Origin: a virus
Taxonomy: Duplodnaviria; Heunggongvirae; Uroviricota; Caudoviricetes
DNA length: 31,111 nucleotides
IMG/VR virus record: IMGVR_UViG_2563366800_000008
Strand: one strand, 5' to 3'
The position numbers and the translations under genes were made by a program. Each line of letters begins with the position of its first letter. The stretch's first letter is position 1. Below, one piece after another: positions 1-19,651 of this stretch. The notes beneath the pieces were generated by a model. The model did not search any database. It was not told where the DNA came from and saw only the letters and a program-made list of their open reading frames with translations.

Positions 1-1128
1 TTATGCCGCCAGCACGCGGTTGCGTCCATCATTTTTCGCCCGATACAAAGCATCATCAACGCGTTTAAACAGTTCATCGATGCTTTCATTTCCTTCGTGA
101 TGCGCCACACCAATGCTGACGGTAAAGCGTGGTAAGCCCGAAATACTCACTTTTGCCACGCTTACGCGGATAGTTTCAGCCAGCGAAAGCGCGGTATCCA
201 GTGGGGTTCTTGGTAGCAATAAGACAAACTCTTCGCCTCCCCAACGAAACACCAAATCGCCTTTGCGAGCGCAACTTTCGAGGGTGCGGGCGAGGGCGCA
301 TAACACCTCATCACCTTTAGAATGCCCATAGAGATCGTTAATGTGTTTAAAACGATCGGTGTCGATGAGCAACAAGCTGTAATCCTGAGCGATGGCGAGA
401 TGCTGCATTTGGCCTGGTTCCGTAATGTGATAAAACTGTCGCCGATTCAGTAATCCGGTCATCGCGTCATGGTGAGCAGCATGTTCCAGCTGCTCCTCCA
501 GCCGTTTTTGCTCAGTAATATCATGCACAATACATAACATGAGCTTGTCGCCATAAATTTCAATCGGTCCGGCATAGGTCTGCACATGACGAGTCGAACC
601 ATCCGCCAGTTTATGAACAAAATTCAAAGGTTTATGACCACCGGGTAAATGCGAGATTTCATGCATGATAGGCATGACGCGACGCCCGAGCATATTTATT
701 TCCCAGGTATGTTTCTGGCACATCGTTTCATGGTTATAACCATAGAAATTGAGCGCGGCGAGGTTAGCATCGACGATTTGTCCATCTCGTGACGGGTCAA
801 TCAACAACATTGGTGCAGAGTTAGTCAGAAAAAAGCGCGCATAAAAACCTTGTTTTTTGCGCTGATAATTTGCCGAGCGACTGGCTTTTAAACCCAGCGT
901 TGCCGGCGCTTCGATACCTTCGAAAATAATCACCGGTTCTGTTTCTGTCAGCTTTCGCAAAACAAGCCGACAGCTCAATGCTGTTTCCTCTTCTTTACGC
1001 TGAACAGTGAGGATTTCGATAATATCGTGTTGGTTTTGCAGATCGGAGAGGTATTTCGGCAGTTCTTTTTGTGAGGAGACGGAATAGGGTCCGGTTCGTA
1101 GCTGACTAAACGTGAGGTCTTGCATCAA
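1..1128 (-). CDS. dgcM: Host PAS-GGDEF diguanylate cyclase; 5' end interrupted by the prophage
   Basis: 375-aa ORF with GGEEF active-site motif (RWGGEEFVLLL) and PAS-like N-terminal region; stop codon at 1-3. Reading frame stays open upstream to a TAG at 1213-1215 and encodes SLDLLTSPVWIVSPFEEQLIYANSAAKLL, which matches my recollection of the DgcM/YdaM N-terminus. No in-frame start before that; first in-window ATG is at 1123-1125 (ORF track begins at a TTG). Confidence 0.8.
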   Translation of the reverse strand: MMQDLTFSQLRTGPYSVSSQKELPKYLSDLQNQHDIIEILTVQRKEEETALSCRLVLRKLTETEPVIIFEGIEAPATLGLKASRSANYQRKKQGFYARFFLTNSAPMLLIDPSRDGQIVDANLAALNFYGYNHETMCQKHTWEINMLGRRVMPIMHEISHLPGGHKPLNFVHKLADGSTRHVQTYAGPIEIYGDKLMLCIVHDITEQKRLEEQLEHAAHHDAMTGLLNRRQFYHITEPGQMQHLAIAQDYSLLLIDTDRFKHINDLYGHSKGDEVLCALARTLESCARKGDLVFRWGGEEFVLLLPRTPLDTALSLAETIRVSVAKVSISGLPRFTVSIGVAHHEGNESIDELFKRVDDALYRAKNDGRNRVLAA

Positions 1129-1248
1129 CAGTTTCGCCGCGCTATTGGCATAAATTAACTGTTCCTCAAAGGGCGAAACGATCCAGACAGGACTGGTGAG
1201 TAAGTCCAGTGACTAGTGACAGTGATGTATGGATCAAACAGAGAACCC

Positions 1249-7817: not shown

Positions 7818-8322
7818 GTTAATCCATGTTGCCCGTCGCAATCTACAACTGGACGATGACACCTACCGCTCTGTACTGATGCGAGTGACGGGAAAGCAAA
7901 GCTGTCGTGACCTGAGAGTCGGCCAACTGGAGGATGTGCTGAAGGTACTGGAGGATAAGGGTTTCATTCGTACCCGTCCCCGTTCTCCGGCTCGCCGTCA
8001 TCGTGAGACAGATATCACCGCAAAGGTCCGCAGCATCTGGCGGCAGATGCATCTTGATGGGTTTATCCGTGATGGCAGCGATACCTCACTCGATTCGTTC
8101 GTCGCGAAGATGACTGTCAGAACCAACAAAGGTAAAGGTATCGCCAGCCTGGCATGGTGCCGTGGCGATAATCTTCTGATGGTGCTGGAAAGCCTCAAGC
8201 AATGGCACCTGAGAGAAATGACAGAGGCGCTGAGTCCGCGAGACCTGGCATTTCAGGATAATCGGGGTTATGACGCCATCAACAGCCTGTATTCCAGTAA
8301 AGTAAGAAAGGTGCGCACATGA
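7795..8322 (+). CDS. gemA: GemA-like protein (Mu gp16 family)
   Basis: N-terminus MSRASLIKLIHVARRNLQLDDDTYRSVLMRVTGKQSCRDL resembles Mu GemA. ATG at 7795; the ORF-track start at 7750 is a TTG. Confidence 0.75.
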   Translation: MSRASLIKLIHVARRNLQLDDDTYRSVLMRVTGKQSCRDLRVGQLEDVLKVLEDKGFIRTRPRSPARRHRETDITAKVRSIWRQMHLDGFIRDGSDTSLDSFVAKMTVRTNKGKGIASLAWCRGDNLLMVLESLKQWHLREMTEALSPRDLAFQDNRGYDAINSLYSSKVRKVRT

Positions 8323-8726
8323 GCGAAAAGCAGAATGACCTGTTTGGTGATATCCAGGATGACAGCATTCTGGAGCACCTGGACGATGACAGTTCGGCGG
8401 AAACTGTGCGTTTCCCTGCACTGCTGACAGAACTGAATACGCTGTTGCGTGGCGAACTGACAAAGCATGGTGTTGACCCACGAATCTCTCTGGAGCTGGT
8501 CTATGCGATTAGCTGTCAGATTGGTGGAATGCAGATTTATTTTCCACGCGGCCAGACTCTTGAGTCATTGATTCGTGATATGAAAATCTGGCGTGATTTC
8601 AATGGCAGAAACATCACAGAGTTGGTTGAGCGTTACCGTGTTACCTATAAAACGGTGTATAAAGCAATCCGGAGAATGCGAAAGTTAGAGCAAGGTAAGA
8701 GGCAGCTCTCATTTAATATGGAGTGA
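8319..8726 (+). CDS. mor: Mor/C-family transcriptional activator
   Basis: 135-aa ORF; DLFGD..DD.IL.HLD...RFPALL.EL..LLRGEL and C-terminal HTH TVYKAIRRMR resemble Mu Mor. Start overlaps the gemA stop (ATGA). Confidence 0.85.
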   Translation: MSEKQNDLFGDIQDDSILEHLDDDSSAETVRFPALLTELNTLLRGELTKHGVDPRISLELVYAISCQIGGMQIYFPRGQTLESLIRDMKIWRDFNGRNITELVERYRVTYKTVYKAIRRMRKLEQGKRQLSFNME

Positions 8727-9054: not shown

Positions 9055-9070
9055 GTTATAGCCAATACAA

Positions 9071-9086
9071 TGAAGCCGGTTAATCC
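9071..9086 (+). promoter_or_regulatory. Conserved motif TGAAGCCGGTTAATCC upstream of the lysis operon; candidate late-promoter activator site
   Basis: Identical 16-mer recurs at 17045-17060 upstream of the head gene; both copies lie 76-80 nt before the first ATG of an operon. Confidence 0.45.
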
Positions 9087-9097
9087 GGCTTTTTTTT
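9073..9097 (+). terminator. Rho-independent terminator
   Basis: Perfect inverted repeat AAGCCGG-TTAAT-CCGGCTT followed by a run of T residues. Confidence 0.7.
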
Positions 9098-9150
9098 CGT
9101 CCGGCACATGATGGAAGGGAAATCTAACCCACTTCCAAAGGTGCCGTTTT

Positions 9151-14562: not shown

Positions 14563-16130
14563 TGTTTAAACAACTAACCGGAGCCGTTCGCCGGCTGCTC
14601 AGTCCTGCCACGGGAGAAGTTGTCACCGTGAACAAGGATGAGCTGAAGCAGACGCAATCCGCAGCGGCGGTAATGAGTGTACGTTCCCCCTCGGCAGGTA
14701 TCAGCGTTGCCAGTACGCTGAGTCCCGGCAGGCTTGCGGGGATCTTACGTAATGCAGCCGATGGTCATGCCCGTGATTTCTTCATTATGGCGGAGGAACT
14801 GGAGGAACGTGACCTCCACTACGCCAGCGTTTTACGTACACGCAAGCTGACGGTTTCCGGGATTGAACCTTCAGTGGAGGCCGGGAGCGATTCCCCGCGG
14901 GATGTGGAAATCGCAGATGATATCCGTAACCTCATGGCGCAACCGCAGGTTCCCGAACTGCTGTTCGATTTGCTGGACGGGCTTGGTAAAGGCGTTGGTG
15001 TCTGCGAAATCCTCTGGAATACCAGCACCACACTCTGGAAACCCCGCGATTATGAATGGGTAGATCCACGTTTTCTGAAACCTGACCGGGAAACGCTGCG
15101 TGATTTCAGACTACTGACGGACAGGAACCCCATCGATGGTGAGCCATTGTCACCGGGGAAATTTATCGTCCATAAGCCCCGCCTGAAATCCGGTCTGCCC
15201 TTGCGTAACGGTCTGGCGCGTCTGGTGGCCGTCATGTATATGCTCAAGTCCTACACAGTCCGGGACTGGTGGGCGTTTGCTGAAAAATTTGGCATCCCGA
15301 TTGTGGTGGGTAAATACGGCAACAACGCCAGCCCGGAACAAATCCAGACATTGCTGGATGCGATTGCATCACTGGCATCAGATGCCGGCTGCGCAATCCC
15401 CGACTCGATGAAACTGGAGATGCAGGAAGCGGCGAGCCGTAACAGCGGTGGCACTCTCTTTAAAGAGATGGCCGAATGGTGTGACGCGCAGATTAGTAAG
15501 GCCGTACTGGGGCAGACCATGACCACGGATGACGGCAGTTCACGTGCTCAGGCGGAAGTCCACAATGGTGTGCGTATGGACATCGCCAAATGGGATGCCT
15601 GGCAGTTATCCAACACGCTGTCTGAATTCCTTGTTCGTCCCTATGTGGATATGAATTACGGACCACAGGAGCATTACCCCCGCGTCGTTCTGCGCATCAG
15701 CAAACCGGAAGATCTTAAGGTTCTGGTGGATGCACTGTCGCCGCTGATTGACCGGGGGATGGAAGTTCAGATGTCAGAGATCCGTGACAAATTCGGGCTG
15801 TCTGAACCGGAGAAAGGCGCAAAAATTCTGACACCAACGGCGCAAATGACTAACCCACTACCGGCCATGAACCGTGAGCAGACTGCGCTTAACCGCAGCC
15901 AGCCTGACGTTCTTGATATGATGGTGGATGAAGCGATGAATGACTGGCAGCGTACCGGCGATGCGTTCACCAGTCCGGTGCTTGAGCTGGCAAAGAAATC
16001 TGACAGCTTTGAATCTTTTCTTGCTGGCCTGCCGGCGCTTCAGAAAGAACTTGATGCGGATGAGTTTGCGACGCAGCTGGCGATGCTCTGTTTTAAAGCC
16101 CGGTCGCTGGGAGATGTAAACGATGGCTAA
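14562..16130 (+). CDS. Portal protein (Mu gp29 family)
   Basis: 522-aa ORF immediately after the terminase; size and position match the Mu portal. Confidence 0.85.
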   Translation: MFKQLTGAVRRLLSPATGEVVTVNKDELKQTQSAAAVMSVRSPSAGISVASTLSPGRLAGILRNAADGHARDFFIMAEELEERDLHYASVLRTRKLTVSGIEPSVEAGSDSPRDVEIADDIRNLMAQPQVPELLFDLLDGLGKGVGVCEILWNTSTTLWKPRDYEWVDPRFLKPDRETLRDFRLLTDRNPIDGEPLSPGKFIVHKPRLKSGLPLRNGLARLVAVMYMLKSYTVRDWWAFAEKFGIPIVVGKYGNNASPEQIQTLLDAIASLASDAGCAIPDSMKLEMQEAASRNSGGTLFKEMAEWCDAQISKAVLGQTMTTDDGSSRAQAEVHNGVRMDIAKWDAWQLSNTLSEFLVRPYVDMNYGPQEHYPRVVLRISKPEDLKVLVDALSPLIDRGMEVQMSEIRDKFGLSEPEKGAKILTPTAQMTNPLPAMNREQTALNRSQPDVLDMMVDEAMNDWQRTGDAFTSPVLELAKKSDSFESFLAGLPALQKELDADEFATQLAMLCFKARSLGDVNDG

Positions 16131-16917
16131 GCCGGTCAGCGATAAATACAGCATTATTCCCCAGGAAGCACTGGCCTGGCTGAAGGCGAAAAAGCTGAAG
16201 CCGGGATTTGATTACCGCGATGTCTGGATGGAAGAACACAGCATCGGCTTTACTGTGGCAAAGATGACGCAGCTTGATTTGCTGGCGGACGTTCGCCAGC
16301 TCGTGGAGGACGCACTGGAGAGCGGCCAGACCTTTGAGCAATTTCGCGAGGTTCTTAAACCTATGCTGGTCAAACGTGGATGGTGGGGACAGCAACTGAT
16401 GGATGATCCACTGACCGGTGAAACCCGTACTGTCCAGCTCGGCAGTGACCGCCGGATGCGCGTTATCTACGACACCAACATGCGGACAGCCCGCGCGGCG
16501 GGACAATGGCAGCGTATTGAACGGACCCAACGGGCAATGCCTTATCTTGTCTACACCGTCGGCCCCTCACGTGAGCACCGTGCGGAGCATCTGCGCTGGA
16601 AGGATGTCTGCCTGCCGGTGGATCATCCGTTCTGGCGAACACACATGGGGCCGAACGGCTGGGGATGCAAATGCGGTACACGGCAAATCAGCCGGTATGA
16701 GTATGAGCAGATGAAGGCCAACGGCACTATCAACACGGAAGCCCCTGAAGTGCGTACGGTCAGATGGGTTAACAAACGCACCGGCGAAGAAGAGACCATT
16801 CCGGAGGGGATTGATCCCGGCTGGGCGTACAACCCCGGAATCTCCCGCAGTCGCGAGCTGGATGAACAGCTACGCAGAAAACAGGACGCGTTTGACAGTC
16901 ATTCGCCACAAAGATAA
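16123..16917 (+). CDS. Head morphogenesis protein (Mu F-like)
   Basis: 264-aa ORF after the portal, the position of Mu F. Confidence 0.7.
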   Translation: MAKPVSDKYSIIPQEALAWLKAKKLKPGFDYRDVWMEEHSIGFTVAKMTQLDLLADVRQLVEDALESGQTFEQFREVLKPMLVKRGWWGQQLMDDPLTGETRTVQLGSDRRMRVIYDTNMRTARAAGQWQRIERTQRAMPYLVYTVGPSREHRAEHLRWKDVCLPVDHPFWRTHMGPNGWGCKCGTRQISRYEYEQMKANGTINTEAPEVRTVRWVNKRTGEEETIPEGIDPGWAYNPGISRSRELDEQLRRKQDAFDSHSPQR

Positions 16918-16958
16918 AAACCATCCCACAACGCGCGTGGCGGCATTAACGATTATTA

Positions 16959-17060
16959 CGTCATGACGGCACGTGAAAAAATCGTTAAACGCGCCACAGC
17001 GTTTTTAAACGTGTTTTAAACGCGGTTTCATGCCGCGTTTACAGTGAAGCCGGTTAATCC
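16959..17060 (+). promoter_or_regulatory. Head-operon upstream regulatory array: palindromes, 9-mer repeats and the shared 16-mer
   Basis: Palindrome CGTCATGACG (16959-16968), CACGTG (16970-16975), three direct TTAAACGYG copies (16985, 17005, 17016) and one inverted copy forming a 9-bp stem (17017-17041), then TGAAGCCGGTTAATCC (17045-17060), 61 nt before the protease/scaffold ATG. Confidence 0.5.
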
Positions 17061-17120
17061 ACCTGCATCCCCGTTCCCCCCCACACTGTCCGGAAGTAAA
17101 CAACGTGACCGGACAACACC

Positions 17121-18077
17121 ATGAACCCGAACAATACGGAACTGCTGGCGCTCTGCTTTCAGCTTCCTGACCTTACCGATGATGCATTGCCGGAATGGCT
17201 GCCGATGATACCGGCGGGAACCTTTACAGGGCGTGATGGCCGTTCGTGGGTGAACAACAATCCGGAAGCCATCATTCGTGCCTCGATGGCTTATCCAAAG
17301 CTCCCGTTTGATATCGAGCACTCTACCGAACTGAAAGGCCCGAAAGGCGATGAAGCCCCGGCTTATGGCTGGATTGACGGCTATCGCGTCAGTGATGGCG
17401 TGGTGGAGGCGCACGTTGAATGGACTGATGACGGCATGGCGCAGCTGCGCGGCAAGAAGTACCTCTATTACAGTCCGGCCTTTCGGTTCACTGCGGACGG
17501 TCAGGTCACCCGCCTGTCCAGCGCCGCGCTGACCAACAAACCCAACCTTGATTTACCCGCACTCAACTCTGAGGAAAACACGATGACCGTACCTGTCCAG
17601 ATTGTGACAGTGCTTGGCCTCGCGGCCACTGCCACAGCAGACGACGCAGTAAAAGCCATTCAGCAGATTAAGACCGCCGAGCAGGTGGCGCTTAACCGCG
17701 CTGAGAATCCTGACCTGACGAAGTTCATTCCGGTAGAGACCCACCAGTTAGCACTTAACCGTGCGGAAAGCGCTGAAAACAAACTCAATGAGATTGCCAT
17801 CAAAGAATCAGAAGCACTGGTGGACAGCGCCATTGAGTCGGGGAAAGTCGCACCGGCCAACCGAGAAATGTATCTCGCCACCTGCCGCTCTGAAGAGGGC
17901 CGAAAGCGGTTTGCTGAATTCGTGAAAGCGGCACCGGTCATTGTCAGCAAGACCACGACGACCAAAAAAGAAGGCACCGAAGGTCATGCCTCGCTTTCTG
18001 ACGAAGACCTCGCGATGTGCCGCCATATGGGCATCAGCGAAGAAGAATTCCTTTCCGTTCGTAAGCAGGAGAAATAA
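17121..18077 (+). CDS. Head maturation protease / scaffold (Mu I family)
   Basis: 318-aa ORF directly upstream of the major head gene; N-terminal protease-like region and Ala/Glu-rich helical C-terminal region as in Mu gpI. Confidence 0.8.
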   Translation: MNPNNTELLALCFQLPDLTDDALPEWLPMIPAGTFTGRDGRSWVNNNPEAIIRASMAYPKLPFDIEHSTELKGPKGDEAPAYGWIDGYRVSDGVVEAHVEWTDDGMAQLRGKKYLYYSPAFRFTADGQVTRLSSAALTNKPNLDLPALNSEENTMTVPVQIVTVLGLAATATADDAVKAIQQIKTAEQVALNRAENPDLTKFIPVETHQLALNRAESAENKLNEIAIKESEALVDSAIESGKVAPANREMYLATCRSEEGRKRFAEFVKAAPVIVSKTTTTKKEGTEGHASLSDEDLAMCRHMGISEEEFLSVRKQEK

Positions 18078-18080
18078 TTC

Positions 18081-18974
18081 ATGCAGGTATCCGCAGAAGT
18101 GTTGCATGCCCTGACCACCGCACTGAGCGCCGCCTTTACCAAAGGTGTTGGTCGGGTCAATCCGCAGTATCGATCCATCGCCACGGTCATCCCCAGTTCC
18201 GGCGCGTCTAACACTTATGGCTGGGTTGAAGACTTCCCGACCATCAAAGAATGGATCGGGGCGCGTCAGCTGAAAGAACTGGCTCAGGCCGGGTATGTCA
18301 TTACCAACAAGACCTGGGAAAACTCGGTCAAGGTCAAGCGCGAAAAAATCGAGGACGATCAGATTGGTCAGTATTCCGTGATTGCTGAGCAGCTTGGCCG
18401 CGATACCACGATTTTCCCGGACAAGCTGTCGTTTGAGTTGCTGTGCAAAGGCTTCGATACGCTGTGCTGGGACGGTCAGTATTTCTTCGATACTGATCAC
18501 CCTGTTGGTACATCCACCAAATCGAACGTTGTGGGCGACCCGGCGACCGATACGGGTGAGCCGTGGTTCCTGATTGATGCAACGCATGCGCTGCTGCCCA
18601 TCATTTACCAGGAGCGCCGTCCGTTTAACTTCATCGCCCTTGATGATCTCACCAGTGAGCGTGTGTTCCTTCAGAACGAATTCGCCTACGGGACCGATGG
18701 CCGCAGCAACGTTGGCTTTGGTTTCTGGCAGACCTGTGTGGGGTCAAAAGCAGCACTGAACAAAGCGAACTATGAAGCCGCTGTCTCCGCAATGATGGGT
18801 ATCACGGACTCTAACGGCGAACCTCTGGGCATGAATCCGACATTGCTGGTCGTCGGTAAGAACAACCGTGGTGCGGCCAAGGCGCTGATTGAAGCGGTTA
18901 CGGCTGATGGTGGTGGTTCAAACATCTATTACAAGGATGTTGACCTGCTGGTCTCACCTTACGTCAAAGCATGA
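18081..18974 (+). CDS. Major head subunit (Mu T family)
   Basis: 297-aa ORF after the protease/scaffold; size and position match Mu gpT. Confidence 0.85.
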   Translation: MQVSAEVLHALTTALSAAFTKGVGRVNPQYRSIATVIPSSGASNTYGWVEDFPTIKEWIGARQLKELAQAGYVITNKTWENSVKVKREKIEDDQIGQYSVIAEQLGRDTTIFPDKLSFELLCKGFDTLCWDGQYFFDTDHPVGTSTKSNVVGDPATDTGEPWFLIDATHALLPIIYQERRPFNFIALDDLTSERVFLQNEFAYGTDGRSNVGFGFWQTCVGSKAALNKANYEAAVSAMMGITDSNGEPLGMNPTLLVVGKNNRGAAKALIEAVTADGGGSNIYYKDVDLLVSPYVKA

Positions 18975-19008
18975 CGTCATTACGTAAAAAATCACGTAAT
19001 GCCGGATT

Positions 19009-19029
19009 AAGGAGGGGTTAACCCTCCTT
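19009..19029 (+). other. Stem-loop after the major head gene, possible attenuator
   Basis: AAGGAGGG (19009-19016) pairs with CCCTCCTT (19022-19029) around a GTTAA loop; only a short T run follows. Preceded by inverted repeat CATTACGT/ACGTAATG (18978-19001). Confidence 0.4.
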
Positions 19030-19057
19030 TAAACCCAACCTGAATGAGGTTTAAAAA

Positions 19058-19651
19058 GTGAGTGGAAAAGTTAATAAGTCAGCCGCTGGTAAGACCGGAA
19101 CCACTTCGGAAAAGAAAGACGACAAAGCAACGAAGGATACGCCTGTCCCGGCGAAACCGGCACCGGTGGCACCAGTTATTACTGATGACAGTCAGGCATC
19201 ACAACCGGCGGTTGCAGCTTCAGATGTCGCATCTGACCCGGAACCTGTACCCGGTGACAATGGAATAACGGTTATCCCGGCCACAGTCAGTCTTGTCACC
19301 ATACCGGGTGAGAACACGGGTGATGACCTGAGAAAACATCTCTGGCAGGAGACGCTGGCACATGACCATTCAGAGGCTGTTCGCATTGCTGAAAATGTCG
19401 TGGTGCTGGAGGTCCGCGCCATTCCGGAAAACGGTTTTCGCCGGGCTGGCCGATTCTGGCCGCACGATACGGTGCATGTGTTTGTCAGCGATAACCCGGA
19501 TGAACAGATTCTGGAAGATGCCGGTGGTAATCCGCTACAGGGGTGCGTGATCAGTACCGACACAGCCCTGCGTCTGAAGGCTGAAAAGATGCTGATTGTG
19601 ACCGAACTGGCGACCGTTGCCGGGACTGAAGCCGACGTGGAGAGCAAATAA
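19058..19651 (+). CDS. Hypothetical virion-associated protein with Ala/Pro/Thr-rich low-complexity N-terminus
   Basis: 197-aa ORF with GTG start and GAGG 9 nt upstream; lies between the major head gene and the gp36-like gene. Confidence 0.55.
   Translation: MSGKVNKSAAGKTGTTSEKKDDKATKDTPVPAKPAPVAPVITDDSQASQPAVAASDVASDPEPVPGDNGITVIPATVSLVTIPGENTGDDLRKHLWQETLAHDHSEAVRIAENVVVLEVRAIPENGFRRAGRFWPHDTVHVFVSDNPDEQILEDAGGNPLQGCVISTDTALRLKAEKMLIVTELATVAGTEADVESK

Follow-up and report, generated by a model that had tools for sequence, protein, structure and literature searches.

Two look-alike strings in a Mu-like prophage of Escherichia coli: the probable core of a central strong gyrase site and a probably unrelated stem-loop

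Results

The prophage and the two strings

The window, by which we mean the whole 31,111-nt stretch of DNA that was analysed, is a Mu-like transposable prophage of E. coli with a Mu-like gene set that includes transposase A and B, Gam, a Mor-family activator, portal, F, protease I and T. The prophage in E. coli ECONIH4 is identical to the window, and the same prophage is present in 5 of 5426 complete E. coli genomes. Its ends map to window position 1210 (left) and to position 40068 of locus L001 (right), with a 5-bp target duplication ATGGC. The prophage carries an IS66 insertion of ~2.49 kb, without which its native length is ~32.37 kb.

We analyse two similar strings in this prophage. Site 1, TTACGTCATGACGGCACGTGAAAAAATCG, occupies positions 16956-16984 in the F–I gap (16918-17120), between head gene F and protease gene I. 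Site 2, TGACGTCATTACGTAAAAAATCACG, occupies positions 18972-18996. The original prediction described them as one recurrent composite motif upstream of two head genes, and both strings do exist, 2-3 bases away from the positions given there (16958-16983 and 18972-18993). The ACGTCAT core is common to both, starting at 16958 and 18974; it occurs nine times on the two strands of the window, compared with 3.8 expected. The ACGT(G)-type extension said to follow the core is exact, as the 13-mer ACGTRAAAAAATC, only at 16971, while the second copy reads ACGT-AAAAAATC and is one base shorter; AAAAAATC itself occurs five times on the + strand of the window. If gaps are allowed, the likeness exceeds what was originally noted and takes in TTACGT, CATGACG, ACGT and AAAAAATC. 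The location upstream of head genes is half right, since site 2 opens with the stop codon TGA of T and hence belongs primarily to the 3' flank of that gene.

The significance of this likeness depends on the space that is searched. The local alignment of the two sites scores 28, compared with 15.4 ± 2.4 (maximum 27) in 1000 shuffles, while a score of at least 28 is also reached by 162 of 146,611 pairs of 110-nt segments from the same prophage, which places the similarity within chance for a whole-window search. For a search limited to the ~10 intergenic gaps (an estimated ~45 pairs), ~0.05 pairs this similar would be expected. A third copy of the composite motif was not found.

Only where the T protein is at least 98% identical do prophages carry the composite pattern at both sites, and a T protein with 100% identity still does not guarantee both copies: in L083, L085 and L087 the match at site 2 is lost through a change of A6 to AAAATA, and in L084 and L086 the match at site 1 is lost, with CACGTG changed to CATATG and TACGTCAT to CGCGTCAT. 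At T identities of ~95% and below, site 1 has TG.TACGATG in place of ACGTCAT. The idea of a single regulatory or protein-binding motif placed before two head genes is not supported, since the copies neither co-vary nor are conserved together and their contexts differ. Conservation in homologous phages, by which that idea was to be judged, does not extend beyond near-identical prophages. What the sites do contain is better described one site at a time.

A dyad-symmetric region with a homologous right arm in the F–I gap

The F–I gap contains the following features, of which the first four carry no strand:

16937-16997: 61-bp imperfect palindrome, arms 16937-16957 and 16977-16997, 81% complementary, centre ~16967
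16958-16976: central spacer ACGTCATGACGGCACGTGA, the most variable stretch in the closest relatives, with CGTCAT kept
16976-16981: A6 tract, which opens the series of A/T tracts in the right arm; A5-7, A4T4 or T6 in relatives
[quoted passage not shown]
17017-17041, + strand: hairpin TAAACGCGG / CCGCGTTTA, 9 bp with a 7-nt loop, at the right end of the arm
17040-17060, + strand: late-promoter box TACAGTGAAGCCGGTTAATCC of the probable P_I, from repeat, alignment and conservation profile
17082-17087, + strand: -10-like hexamer CACACT, 21 nt past the box, aligning with CAAACT in Mu and with CATACT or GACACT in relatives

Site 1 consists of the 19-nt spacer of the palindrome together with the inner end of the right palindrome arm, and the pairing of the 61-bp palindrome is also seen in the fold. 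As a query against all complete E. coli genomes, the gap matched by blastn only the same five prophages, in which it is unannotated. Megablast against the phage collection gave no match, and a distant-mode search of that collection gave Klebsiella phage Kp4866-3 as the sole match spanning most of the query. An Rfam 15 scan of the window found no family at gathering score, and in 16850-19120 only chance-level hits (E=0.28-8.3).

Mean identity across the gap alignment is 0.39 for ACGTCAT, 0.81 for the right arm and 0.84 for the promoter box. The right arm is therefore one of the two best-kept parts of the gap, and ACGTCAT itself is not conserved. Over its 41 nt (16985-17025) the arm is 76% identical to Mu; the block 16987-17022, which directly adjoins site 1, matches Mu 17898-17933 at 28 of 36 positions (78%). 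The right-arm alignment to Mu scores 37, compared with 16.2 ± 2.2 (maximum 32) in 500 shuffles, and a MAFFT alignment with Mu returns the identical register. A right-arm signature, TTTRAACNNGNNTTNAAC, occurs exactly once and on the + strand in 79 of 163 related loci, with a single match on the - strand in one more; in the loci examined it lies upstream of gene I. Its carriers include Mu and prophages of Vibrio, Rheinheimera, Photobacterium, Ectothiorhodospiraceae and a Thermodesulfobacteriota MAG. That the TTAAAC boxes are near-invariant across such distant hosts could, though improbably, reflect base-specific reading by a conserved protein, beyond bendability.

The Mu record annotates a 'gyrase cut site' at 17879/17880, in the G-I gap and 20 nt past the stop codon of G. 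Carried over through the register of the right arm, this predicts gyrase cleavage at 16968/16969 (CATGACG|GCAC), inside site 1 and no more than 2 nt from the centre of the palindrome. The predicted cut lies 15,759 bp from the left end, which is 48.7% of the native ~32.37 kb; the cut in Mu, at 17,880 of 36,717 bp, likewise lies at 48.7% of the genome. The 61-bp palindrome would then form the core (G-segment) region of the SGS homologue. The core itself aligns poorly, with an identity of 24% to Mu in the window over site 1. The dyad symmetry of site 1 would suit a two-fold symmetric enzyme.

The A/T tracts of the right arm are phased at 10-10.6 bp (permutation p=0.0012) and those of the left arm are not (p=0.96), the same asymmetry as in Mu (right arm p=0.027, left arm p=0.74). 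Phasing is not specific to these arms, as it also appears in the post-T gaps of the window and of Mu, where it is probably produced by the stem-loop architecture described below. The right flanks of both sites are among the top five 63-nt windows for A/T periodicity, though after normalisation for variance they reach only the 98th-99th percentile. The suggestion that the A6 tract bends DNA fits site 1, where it is the first of the phased A/T tracts; at site 2 the tract is just a variable loop.

We also scored positions with two crude surrogates derived from a 133-nt gyrase consensus string, one for the exact bases and one for the A/T-versus-G/C (W/S) pattern. Site 1 ranks about 30th among the peaks of the window, by a score that barely picks out Mu's own SGS. 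Both sites fall within the top 0.15% of positions by the W/S score, which hardly discriminates the Mu SGS either; on that SGS the surrogates give rank 48th, or a tie for first within 6.5 kb. They were given no weight. The genome-wide gyrase cleavage motif of Sutormin et al. (2019; PMC6379681) has the consensus centre GGTAT-NNNN-ATACC. The TA(C/T)-rich cores of relatives resemble this centre.

The probable gene I promoter

A 21-nt box, TACARTGAAGCCGGTTAATCC, occurs at 9066-9086 and 17040-17060 and is a real element common to late-gene upstream regions. The promoter of gene I probably lies at the second of these copies, the first belonging to the lysis operon, and not at site 1. Some 100 nt separate the end of site 1 from the -10-like hexamer of P_I downstream, so that the proposed regulator motif is not at the promoter. 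In Mu, the late promoters P_lys and P_I respond to the activator C, a member of the Mor/C family. A block of 10 bp is common to these two Mu promoters (PMC4461284), and we find it, as TCCCGCACCT, in the Mu sequence.

The hairpin at 17017-17041 may terminate the upstream late operon. A conserved terminator in the form of a box-1/box-2 hairpin (AAACGC...GCGTTT followed by T5) was considered and rejected, as Mu and L094-L096 cannot form it.

Three stem-loops after head gene T

The second string lies in a different setting, on the + strand throughout:

18972-18974, + strand: TGA that ends the major head gene T; site 2 opens with these three bases
18975-19004, + strand: stem-loop 1, CG.CAUUACGU - loop AAAAAAUC (18986-18993) - ACGUAAUG.CG, corresponding to site 2
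19009-19029, + strand: stem-loop 2, AAGGAGGG-GTTAA-CCCTCCTT, a structure kept in all relatives
19028-19055, + strand: stem-loop 3, TTTAAACC / GGTTTAAA, overlapping the Shine-Dalgarno GAGG (19046-19049) of the GTG-start gene at 19058

The post-T RNA folds into these three hairpins at -29.9 kcal/mol (z=-4.5). In stem-loop 1 the inner TTACGT/ACGTAA never changes and the outer pairs co-vary, while the A-tract belongs to a variable loop; 87.5% of the cells in its alignment are paired, and three pairs are changed on both sides. Stem-loop 2 has compensatory changes in five of its ten pairs. Where the T protein is only ~65% identical, the palindrome of stem-loop 1 is absent and stem-loop 2 is kept, and Mu has a stem-loop at the place equivalent to stem-loop 2, followed by UUUU. 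Of the palindromic halves originally proposed to bind a dimer, those at site 2 (TTACGT-N8-ACGTAA) are thus real, while site 1 is instead the centre of a dyad-symmetric region.

Both 18975-19004 and 19009-19029 are G+C-rich stem-loops of the kind found in intrinsic terminators. Stem-loop 2 is, however, not a canonical intrinsic terminator: in place of a U-run of at least five it is followed only by UUU (CCCUCCUUUAAAC), and a terminator scan of the + strand found nothing here. In the transcript just past T, the three stem-loops would most likely stabilise the 3' end or cause partial attenuation, uncoupling the expression of I and T from that of the downstream genes, with stem-loop 3 covering the ribosome-binding site of the next gene. 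Tandem octamers, TGACGTCA TTACGTAA, were compared by eye with the met boxes of MetJ (AGACGTCT) and match at just 6/8 and 4/8 positions.

Discussion

Site 1 is probably the core of this prophage's counterpart of the central SGS of Mu. For the two sites together, the account that we think likely is that site 1 is the predicted SGS core, site 2 an unrelated stem-loop, and the resemblance between them coincidental; probably it is a lineage-specific coincidence between two unrelated elements. The homology to Mu's site, the position, the conservation, the A/T phasing and the pairing are all observed.

The Mu SGS drives efficient, processive supercoiling from mid-genome, which helps the prophage ends to meet for transpososome assembly and replicative transposition. 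It was reportedly described by Pato, Howe and Higgins in 1990 and again by Oram et al. in 2006. By analogy, we infer that the dyad-symmetric core at ~16967-16969 would be where host DNA gyrase (A2B2) docks and cuts with a 4-bp stagger, and that the right arm, from the A6 tract through the three phased TTAAACG boxes (16976-17025), would wrap around a GyrA C-terminal domain; any role in transposition would follow from this. In Mu the right arm of the SGS is essential and the left arm dispensable (PMC13284261, PMC10052514), and its phased A/T tracts are credited with bending the DNA around gyrase (PMC13284261). The strength of the site here cannot be assumed, because only one of the heterologous sites tested in Mu, taken from the Mu-like prophage of E. 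coli O157 Sakai, sustained replication (PMC10052514).

We also weighed other explanations. In the first, a single dimeric protein, either a regulator or a nucleoid protein (for example IHF, Fis or a regulator of the phage), would use both sites as operators to control the head genes at 17121 and 19058, and the A-tract would supply a bend. The palindromic ACGT-core elements at both sites and the 26 identical positions in the gapped alignment of the two gaps, more than in shuffles of that pair, would fit such a protein, but the likeness lies within the whole-window background, only near-identical prophages carry both copies, and even where the T protein is identical one of the two can be broken. 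ACGTCAT is moreover replaced at site 1 in relatives, its copy at site 2 is variable and shares bases with the stop codon of T, no third copy accompanies the pair, and the real upstream box is a different sequence. The IHF consensus WATCAANNNNTTR has no match at either site, its sole match in the window being at 2047-2059 on the - strand. We regard common operators as very improbable, and scarcely less so the alternative that site 2 is a second, lineage-specific gyrase-engaging site whose likeness to site 1 is functional convergence. If this were true, the I-T head genes would have a gyrase site on either side. A CATGACG core, ACGT, A6 and right-phased A/T tracts are indeed present at both sites, the right flank of site 2 is phased at 10-10.3 bp (p=0.0016; left flank p=0.47), and both sites score high by the W/S surrogate. 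However, that score does not discriminate, three stem-loops in a row account for the phasing, which Mu also shows after T, and site 2 is without homology to the Mu SGS; its CATGACG encodes the last codons and stop of T, and its A-tract is a variable loop.

Each site also has a reading of its own, which we consider unlikely in both cases. The core of site 1 could be, or could double as, a rightward sigma-70 promoter, either for a short leader or small RNA ending at the downstream hairpins or for transcription of gene I. Relatives keep GTGACG-16 nt-(TG.)TACGAT at exactly site 1, Mu has TAAAAT, L040 TACAAT, L158 TTGACG-16-TACAAA and the sister prophages of the window CATGAT, and several relatives have hairpins and then T-runs downstream. 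The hexamers of the window itself, GCGGCA and CATGAC, nevertheless lack the key final T, a promoter scan of the + strand found nothing at site 1, the TG extension and the -35 element are not kept in distant relatives, and the TA(C/T)-rich cores also resemble the gyrase consensus centre. The A/T tracts are kept in Mu and L094-L096 even though the box-1/box-2 hairpin is missing there, which suggests a constraint at the level of DNA. At site 2, TTACGT-N8-ACGTAA might act in DNA, bound by a dimeric protein, and not as an RNA hairpin. The loop varies but the six inner base pairs never do, and this constancy is silent on pairing and would fit base-specific recognition by a dimer equally well. Such recognition does not predict the two-sided A:T to G:C changes of the outer pairs, and the palindrome is single-copy in the prophage, is followed by two further stem-loops in the transcribed 3' flank, and is missing where the T protein is ~65% identical, though stem-loop 2 is kept there. 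An SGS core at site 1 and an RNA stem-loop at site 2 remain the preferred reading of the two strings.

If site 1 works as an SGS, it provides another natural variant for studying how gyrase chooses its sites, and it bears on how a 30-40 kb transposable prophage joins its ends. The comparative series of 79 loci, with a variable core and near-invariant phased TTAAAC boxes, spans Enterobacterales to a Thermodesulfobacteriota MAG and could separate the needs of the enzyme from features specific to Mu. The pair of strings also illustrates that a two-copy composite of short words in A/T-rich gaps is probably not regulatory here, the real promoter element being a different, longer repeat.

SGS-like central sequences in Mu-like prophages were treated by Oram and Pato (2004), as summarised in PMC10052514, and the present prophage resembles these in having a central gyrase-site candidate in the equivalent gap. 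The parallels with Mu are closer. In both, the site lies between the last head-morphogenesis gene and protease I at the same fraction of genome length, has a homologous right arm with A/T tracts phased on the right side only, and is followed by P_I in the same gap. To our knowledge this prophage is not among the Mu-like prophages that have been tested for an SGS, and its site is a candidate. It differs from that of Mu in its core (CATGACG|GCAC compared with AAAATC|AGCC), in its 61-bp imperfect palindrome where Mu has only AAAATC/GATTTT, and in the upstream gene, which is F here and G in Mu. The box and -10-like hexamer (17040-17087) align with the P_I region of Mu, and in both phages the lys and I promoters share a block, of 10 bp in Mu and 21 nt in the window, although the box sequence differs and only one Mor-family gene, at 8319-8726, is annotated in the window. 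For site 2 the nearest parallels are stem-loops or terminators that directly follow a phage major capsid gene, for example T-phi behind gene 10 in T7. As with elements of the T-phi type, a stable stem-loop stands immediately 3' of the most abundantly needed structural gene; the element in the window differs in having no proper U-tract and in being a sequence-based prediction.

Resemblance of the two sites

The 31-kb window holds a Mu-like transposable prophage. The original prediction joined two strings with an ACGTCAT core, upstream of two head genes, into one composite motif. Both strings are present, although their coordinates, 16956-16984 in the F-I gap (site 1) and 18972-18996 directly 3' of head gene T (site 2), differ by 2-3 bases from those first reported. 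The surrounding genes, with calls taken from the RefSeq annotation of the E. coli ECONIH4 copy (locus L001), are:

8319-8726, Mor-family protein gene
16123-16917, head-morphogenesis gene F
17121-18077, phage protease gene I
18081-18974, Mu-type major head protein T
19058, GTG start of a hypothetical gene, with tail genes next

The same annotation gives a repressor-like DNA-binding gene, a transposase and a Mu B-like AAA ATPase, Gam with a single Mor-family activator, and a lysis cassette, terminase and portal; it has no entry for the region of the two sites.

ACGTCAT starts at 16958 and at 18974, and the TGA stop codon of T opens site 2. The 13-mer ACGTRAAAAAATC matches at site 1 only, the version at site 2 being one base shorter. 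A gapped alignment of the two sites (TTACGT / CATGACG / ACGT / AAAAAATC) scores 28 and exceeds the likeness originally described; no shuffle of the pair reaches this score (maximum 27, n = 1000). When 110-nt segments of this prophage are compared with one another, 162 of 146,611 pairs score at least 28, so for a search of the whole window the resemblance is unremarkable, and it is only mildly unusual if intergenic gaps alone count, where we estimate ~0.05 expected pairs among ~45 gap pairs. Site 2 also falls within the densest ACGT cluster of the window, four TNACGTNA octamers within 41 bp at 18959-18999 (TTACGTCA, TGACGTCA, TTACGTAA and TCACGTAA), the first of which encodes Pro-Tyr-Val in the final codons of T.

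Among 160 related loci gathered by T protein, those that have the composite pattern at site 1 and site 2 together are all prophages with a T protein identity of 98% or more. Three prophages with a 100% identical T have no match at site 2, because the A6 tract is interrupted, and two have none at site 1 (CACGTG has become CATATG in one, TACGTCAT has become CGCGTCAT in the other). At T identities of ~95% and below, site 1 reads TTTATGCTACGATGGCG... in place of ACGTCAT, and the mean identity of these columns to the window is 0.39; the ACGTCAT of site 2 overlaps the stop codon, and relatives have GAGTCCG, AGCCGG and similar. The two copies vary independently. A lack of conservation in homologous phages is what the original prediction itself had named as speaking against it. 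The observation is real as a string match but not a motif.

Site 1 and the strong gyrase site of Mu

Conservation in the F-I gap is strong but peaks away from the proposed motif, at 16985-17025 (mean identity 0.81) and 17040-17060 (0.84). Three copies of a TTAAACG box lie in the first peak (16985, 17005, 17016), spaced by 20 and 11 bp. In the Mu record a 'gyrase cut site' is annotated at 17879/17880 in the G-I gap, 20 nt past the stop of gene G, and the Mu sequence to the right of this cut, GATTTTTTAAAACGCGCCACGGGATTTTTAAACCGGTATTTAACGG, is homologous to GAAAAAATCGTTAAACGCGCCACAGCGTTTTTAAACGTGTTTTAAACGCGG of the window: the right arms are identical at 28 of 36 positions, with a score of 37 against 16.2 +/- 2.2 for shuffles. 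Multiple alignment with Mu gives the same register as the pairwise one, which places the predicted cut at 16968/16969 (CATGACG|GCAC), within site 1. The cut is close to the centre (~16967) of a 61-bp imperfect palindrome with 81% complementary arms (16937-16957 and 16977-16997), of which site 1 comprises the 19-nt spacer together with the inner part of the right arm.

The left end of the prophage, beginning TG (TGACTAGTG...), is at 1210, and its right end in ECONIH4 is ...CA at L001 40068, where ATGGC forms the flanking 5-bp target duplication. Once an IS66 insertion (~2.49 kb, tail-fibre region) is discounted, the native element is ~32.37 kb, and the predicted cut, 15,759 bp from the left end, falls at 48.7% of its length. 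The cut in Mu, at 17,880 of 36,717 bp, lies at the same fraction.

Site 1 and the strong gyrase site (SGS) of Mu also agree in A/T phasing. At site 1 the 10-10.6-bp phasing is found on the right flank (permutation p = 0.0012) and not on the left (p = 0.96), and the Mu SGS has the same right-only pattern. The Mu SGS works through its right arm, where phased bending signals wrap a GyrA C-terminal domain, and its left arm is dispensable (PMC13284261; PMC10052514).

The noncoding signature TTTRAACNNGNNTTNAAC covers two of the phased TTAAAC boxes, of which there are three. Of 163 Mu-like loci, 79 have a single copy, on the + strand (e.g., L019 2722-2739, L040 2763-2780, L058 2827-2844, L066 2398-2415 and L163 3416-3433), and in the loci examined this copy is upstream of gene I. 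The loci that carry it come from very different hosts and include Mu and prophages of Vibrio, Rheinheimera, Photobacterium, Ectothiorhodospiraceae and a Thermodesulfobacteriota metagenome-assembled genome. The signature is conserved above its flanking sequence. In relatives the spacers between the boxes vary and the A/T tracts are kept, a pattern that a DNA-shape element should show and an RNA hairpin should not. In the closest clade, most variation falls within the spacer, near the predicted 4-bp overhang; CGTCAT and the flanks are fixed. We conclude that the prophage has an SGS homologue with site 1 as its core and first A/T tract, at which gyrase would act.

Over the queried 3.7 kb, prophages of E. 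coli ECONIH4 and two other strains are 100% identical to the window; of 5426 complete E. coli genomes, only 5 carry the prophage. The left flank of the window (1-1209) is unlike that of ECONIH4, where the element is inserted within a lambdoid tail gene, so the window copy has inserted elsewhere, as a transposing phage would. The IS66-family element of ECONIH4 (L001 35513-38002, past the window's right edge) disrupts a tail-fibre assembly gene, so that the SGS homologue sits at 45.2% of element length instead of 48.7%. The strongest 10.6-bp A/T periodicity of the window comes from repeated GGGAAT units (CCGGGAATAACCGGGAATTCATGGGAATTAACGGGAGG) just inside the left end, at 1242-1290, which are probably its transposase-binding repeats.

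The probable late promoter of gene I

The second conservation peak of the F-I gap is a 21-nt box (an exact 20/21-nt repeat) with exactly two copies in the prophage, each 20-21 nt upstream of a -10-like hexamer:

9066-9086, TACARTGAAGCCGGTTAATCC, before the endolysin gene; -10-like CATGAT at 9107-9112
17040-17060, TACARTGAAGCCGGTTAATCC, before gene I; -10-like CACACT at 17082-17087

The I copy aligns with the region of P_I, the late promoter of gene I in Mu, CACACT corresponding to CAAACT. The lys and I promoters of Mu have a 10-bp block in common (PMC4461284), seen as TCCCGCACCT in the Mu sequence, just as the lys and I regions share the 21-nt box here; Klebsiella phage Kp4866-3 likewise has two copies of the box. 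These are probably Mor/C-dependent late promoters, with the Mor-family protein of 8319-8726 as the likely activator. Site 1 ends ~100 nt upstream of the P_I -10-like hexamer and is outside P_I.

The lys copy is also an intrinsic terminator (AAGCCGG-TTAAT-CCGGCTT + T8, 9073-9098) after a 107-aa ORF. Several relatives have an I copy that likewise makes a perfect hairpin followed by a run of T. A single sequence may thus serve both as terminator of an operon and as a piece of the promoter that follows, which also appears to be the case in Mu for the hairpin downstream of gene C. The predicted 5' leader of gene I carries a hairpin, TGTCCGG / CCGGACA (17087-17093 / 17109-17115), kept in relatives via compensatory changes (CTGTCCGTC / GACGGACAG in the related locus L003); Mu has a leader hairpin of its own, CTGCTCA / TGAGCAG.

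Site 2 and the stem-loops after T

Between the end of T and the following start codon lie 97 nt whose RNA folds as three hairpins (-29.9 kcal/mol, z = -4.5):

18975-19004, stem-loop 1, equal to site 2, with the A6TC string as its loop
19009-19029, stem-loop 2, its structure conserved in all clades
stem-loop 3, overlapping the Shine-Dalgarno sequence of the GTG-start gene

In the nine relatives compared, stem-loop 1 keeps its inner stem, UUACGU/ACGUAA, without change, whereas three of its outer pairs are substituted on both sides (e.g., A:U to G:C). Of its cells 87.5% pair, while the loop varies (AAAAAATC, AAAATATC, AATAAATG, AAAAAATA). Stem-loop 2 has compensatory changes in 5 of 10 pairs, and Mu has AAAGGCGGT-tcag-ACCGCCTTT at its position. 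Site 2 is an ordinary post-capsid stem-loop. The gap after T has no proper U-tract, and a terminator scan reported nothing there on the + strand; we therefore favour a role as 3' stabiliser or partial attenuator over a canonical terminator.

Alternative explanations

A regulator site shared by both places, as first proposed, fails: conservation, position and copy number are all against it, and IHF, suggested for a binding assay, has its consensus WATCAANNNNTTR at neither site. The repressor-like gene (1507-2106, - strand) has the window's only IHF-consensus match (AATCAATTCGTTA, 2047-2059, - strand) over its 5' end, adjoining the divergent control region between this gene and a ner-like gene. 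The IHF site of Mu is in the corresponding repressor/ner control region. The TTACGT-N8-ACGTAA palindrome of site 2 may instead be a protein site, although there is little in favour of that reading. That site 2 is a second gyrase site is suggested by CATGACG, common to both sites, and by A/T phasing on its right side, but both are explained by coding sequence and stem-loop architecture.

In relatives the SGS core may also hold a promoter, since a promoter-like pair, GTGACG-16-(TG.)TACGAT, is conserved there, precisely at the predicted gyrase core (e.g., L094 2855-2885, L008 and L003, aligned with window 16937-16967), and Mu has TAAAAT at this position. The window hexamers are degenerate, however (GCGGCA / CATGAC), and a promoter scan of the window returned nothing on the + strand at the core; sister prophages have CATGAT in place of CATGAC. 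The pair could reflect either a promoter or the core preference of gyrase.

Two by-products should be the most useful, the 21-nt late-promoter box and an alignment of SGS homologues from distant hosts. Site 1 itself probably adds one more case to an established class of element, the strong gyrase site at the centre of Mu-like prophages.
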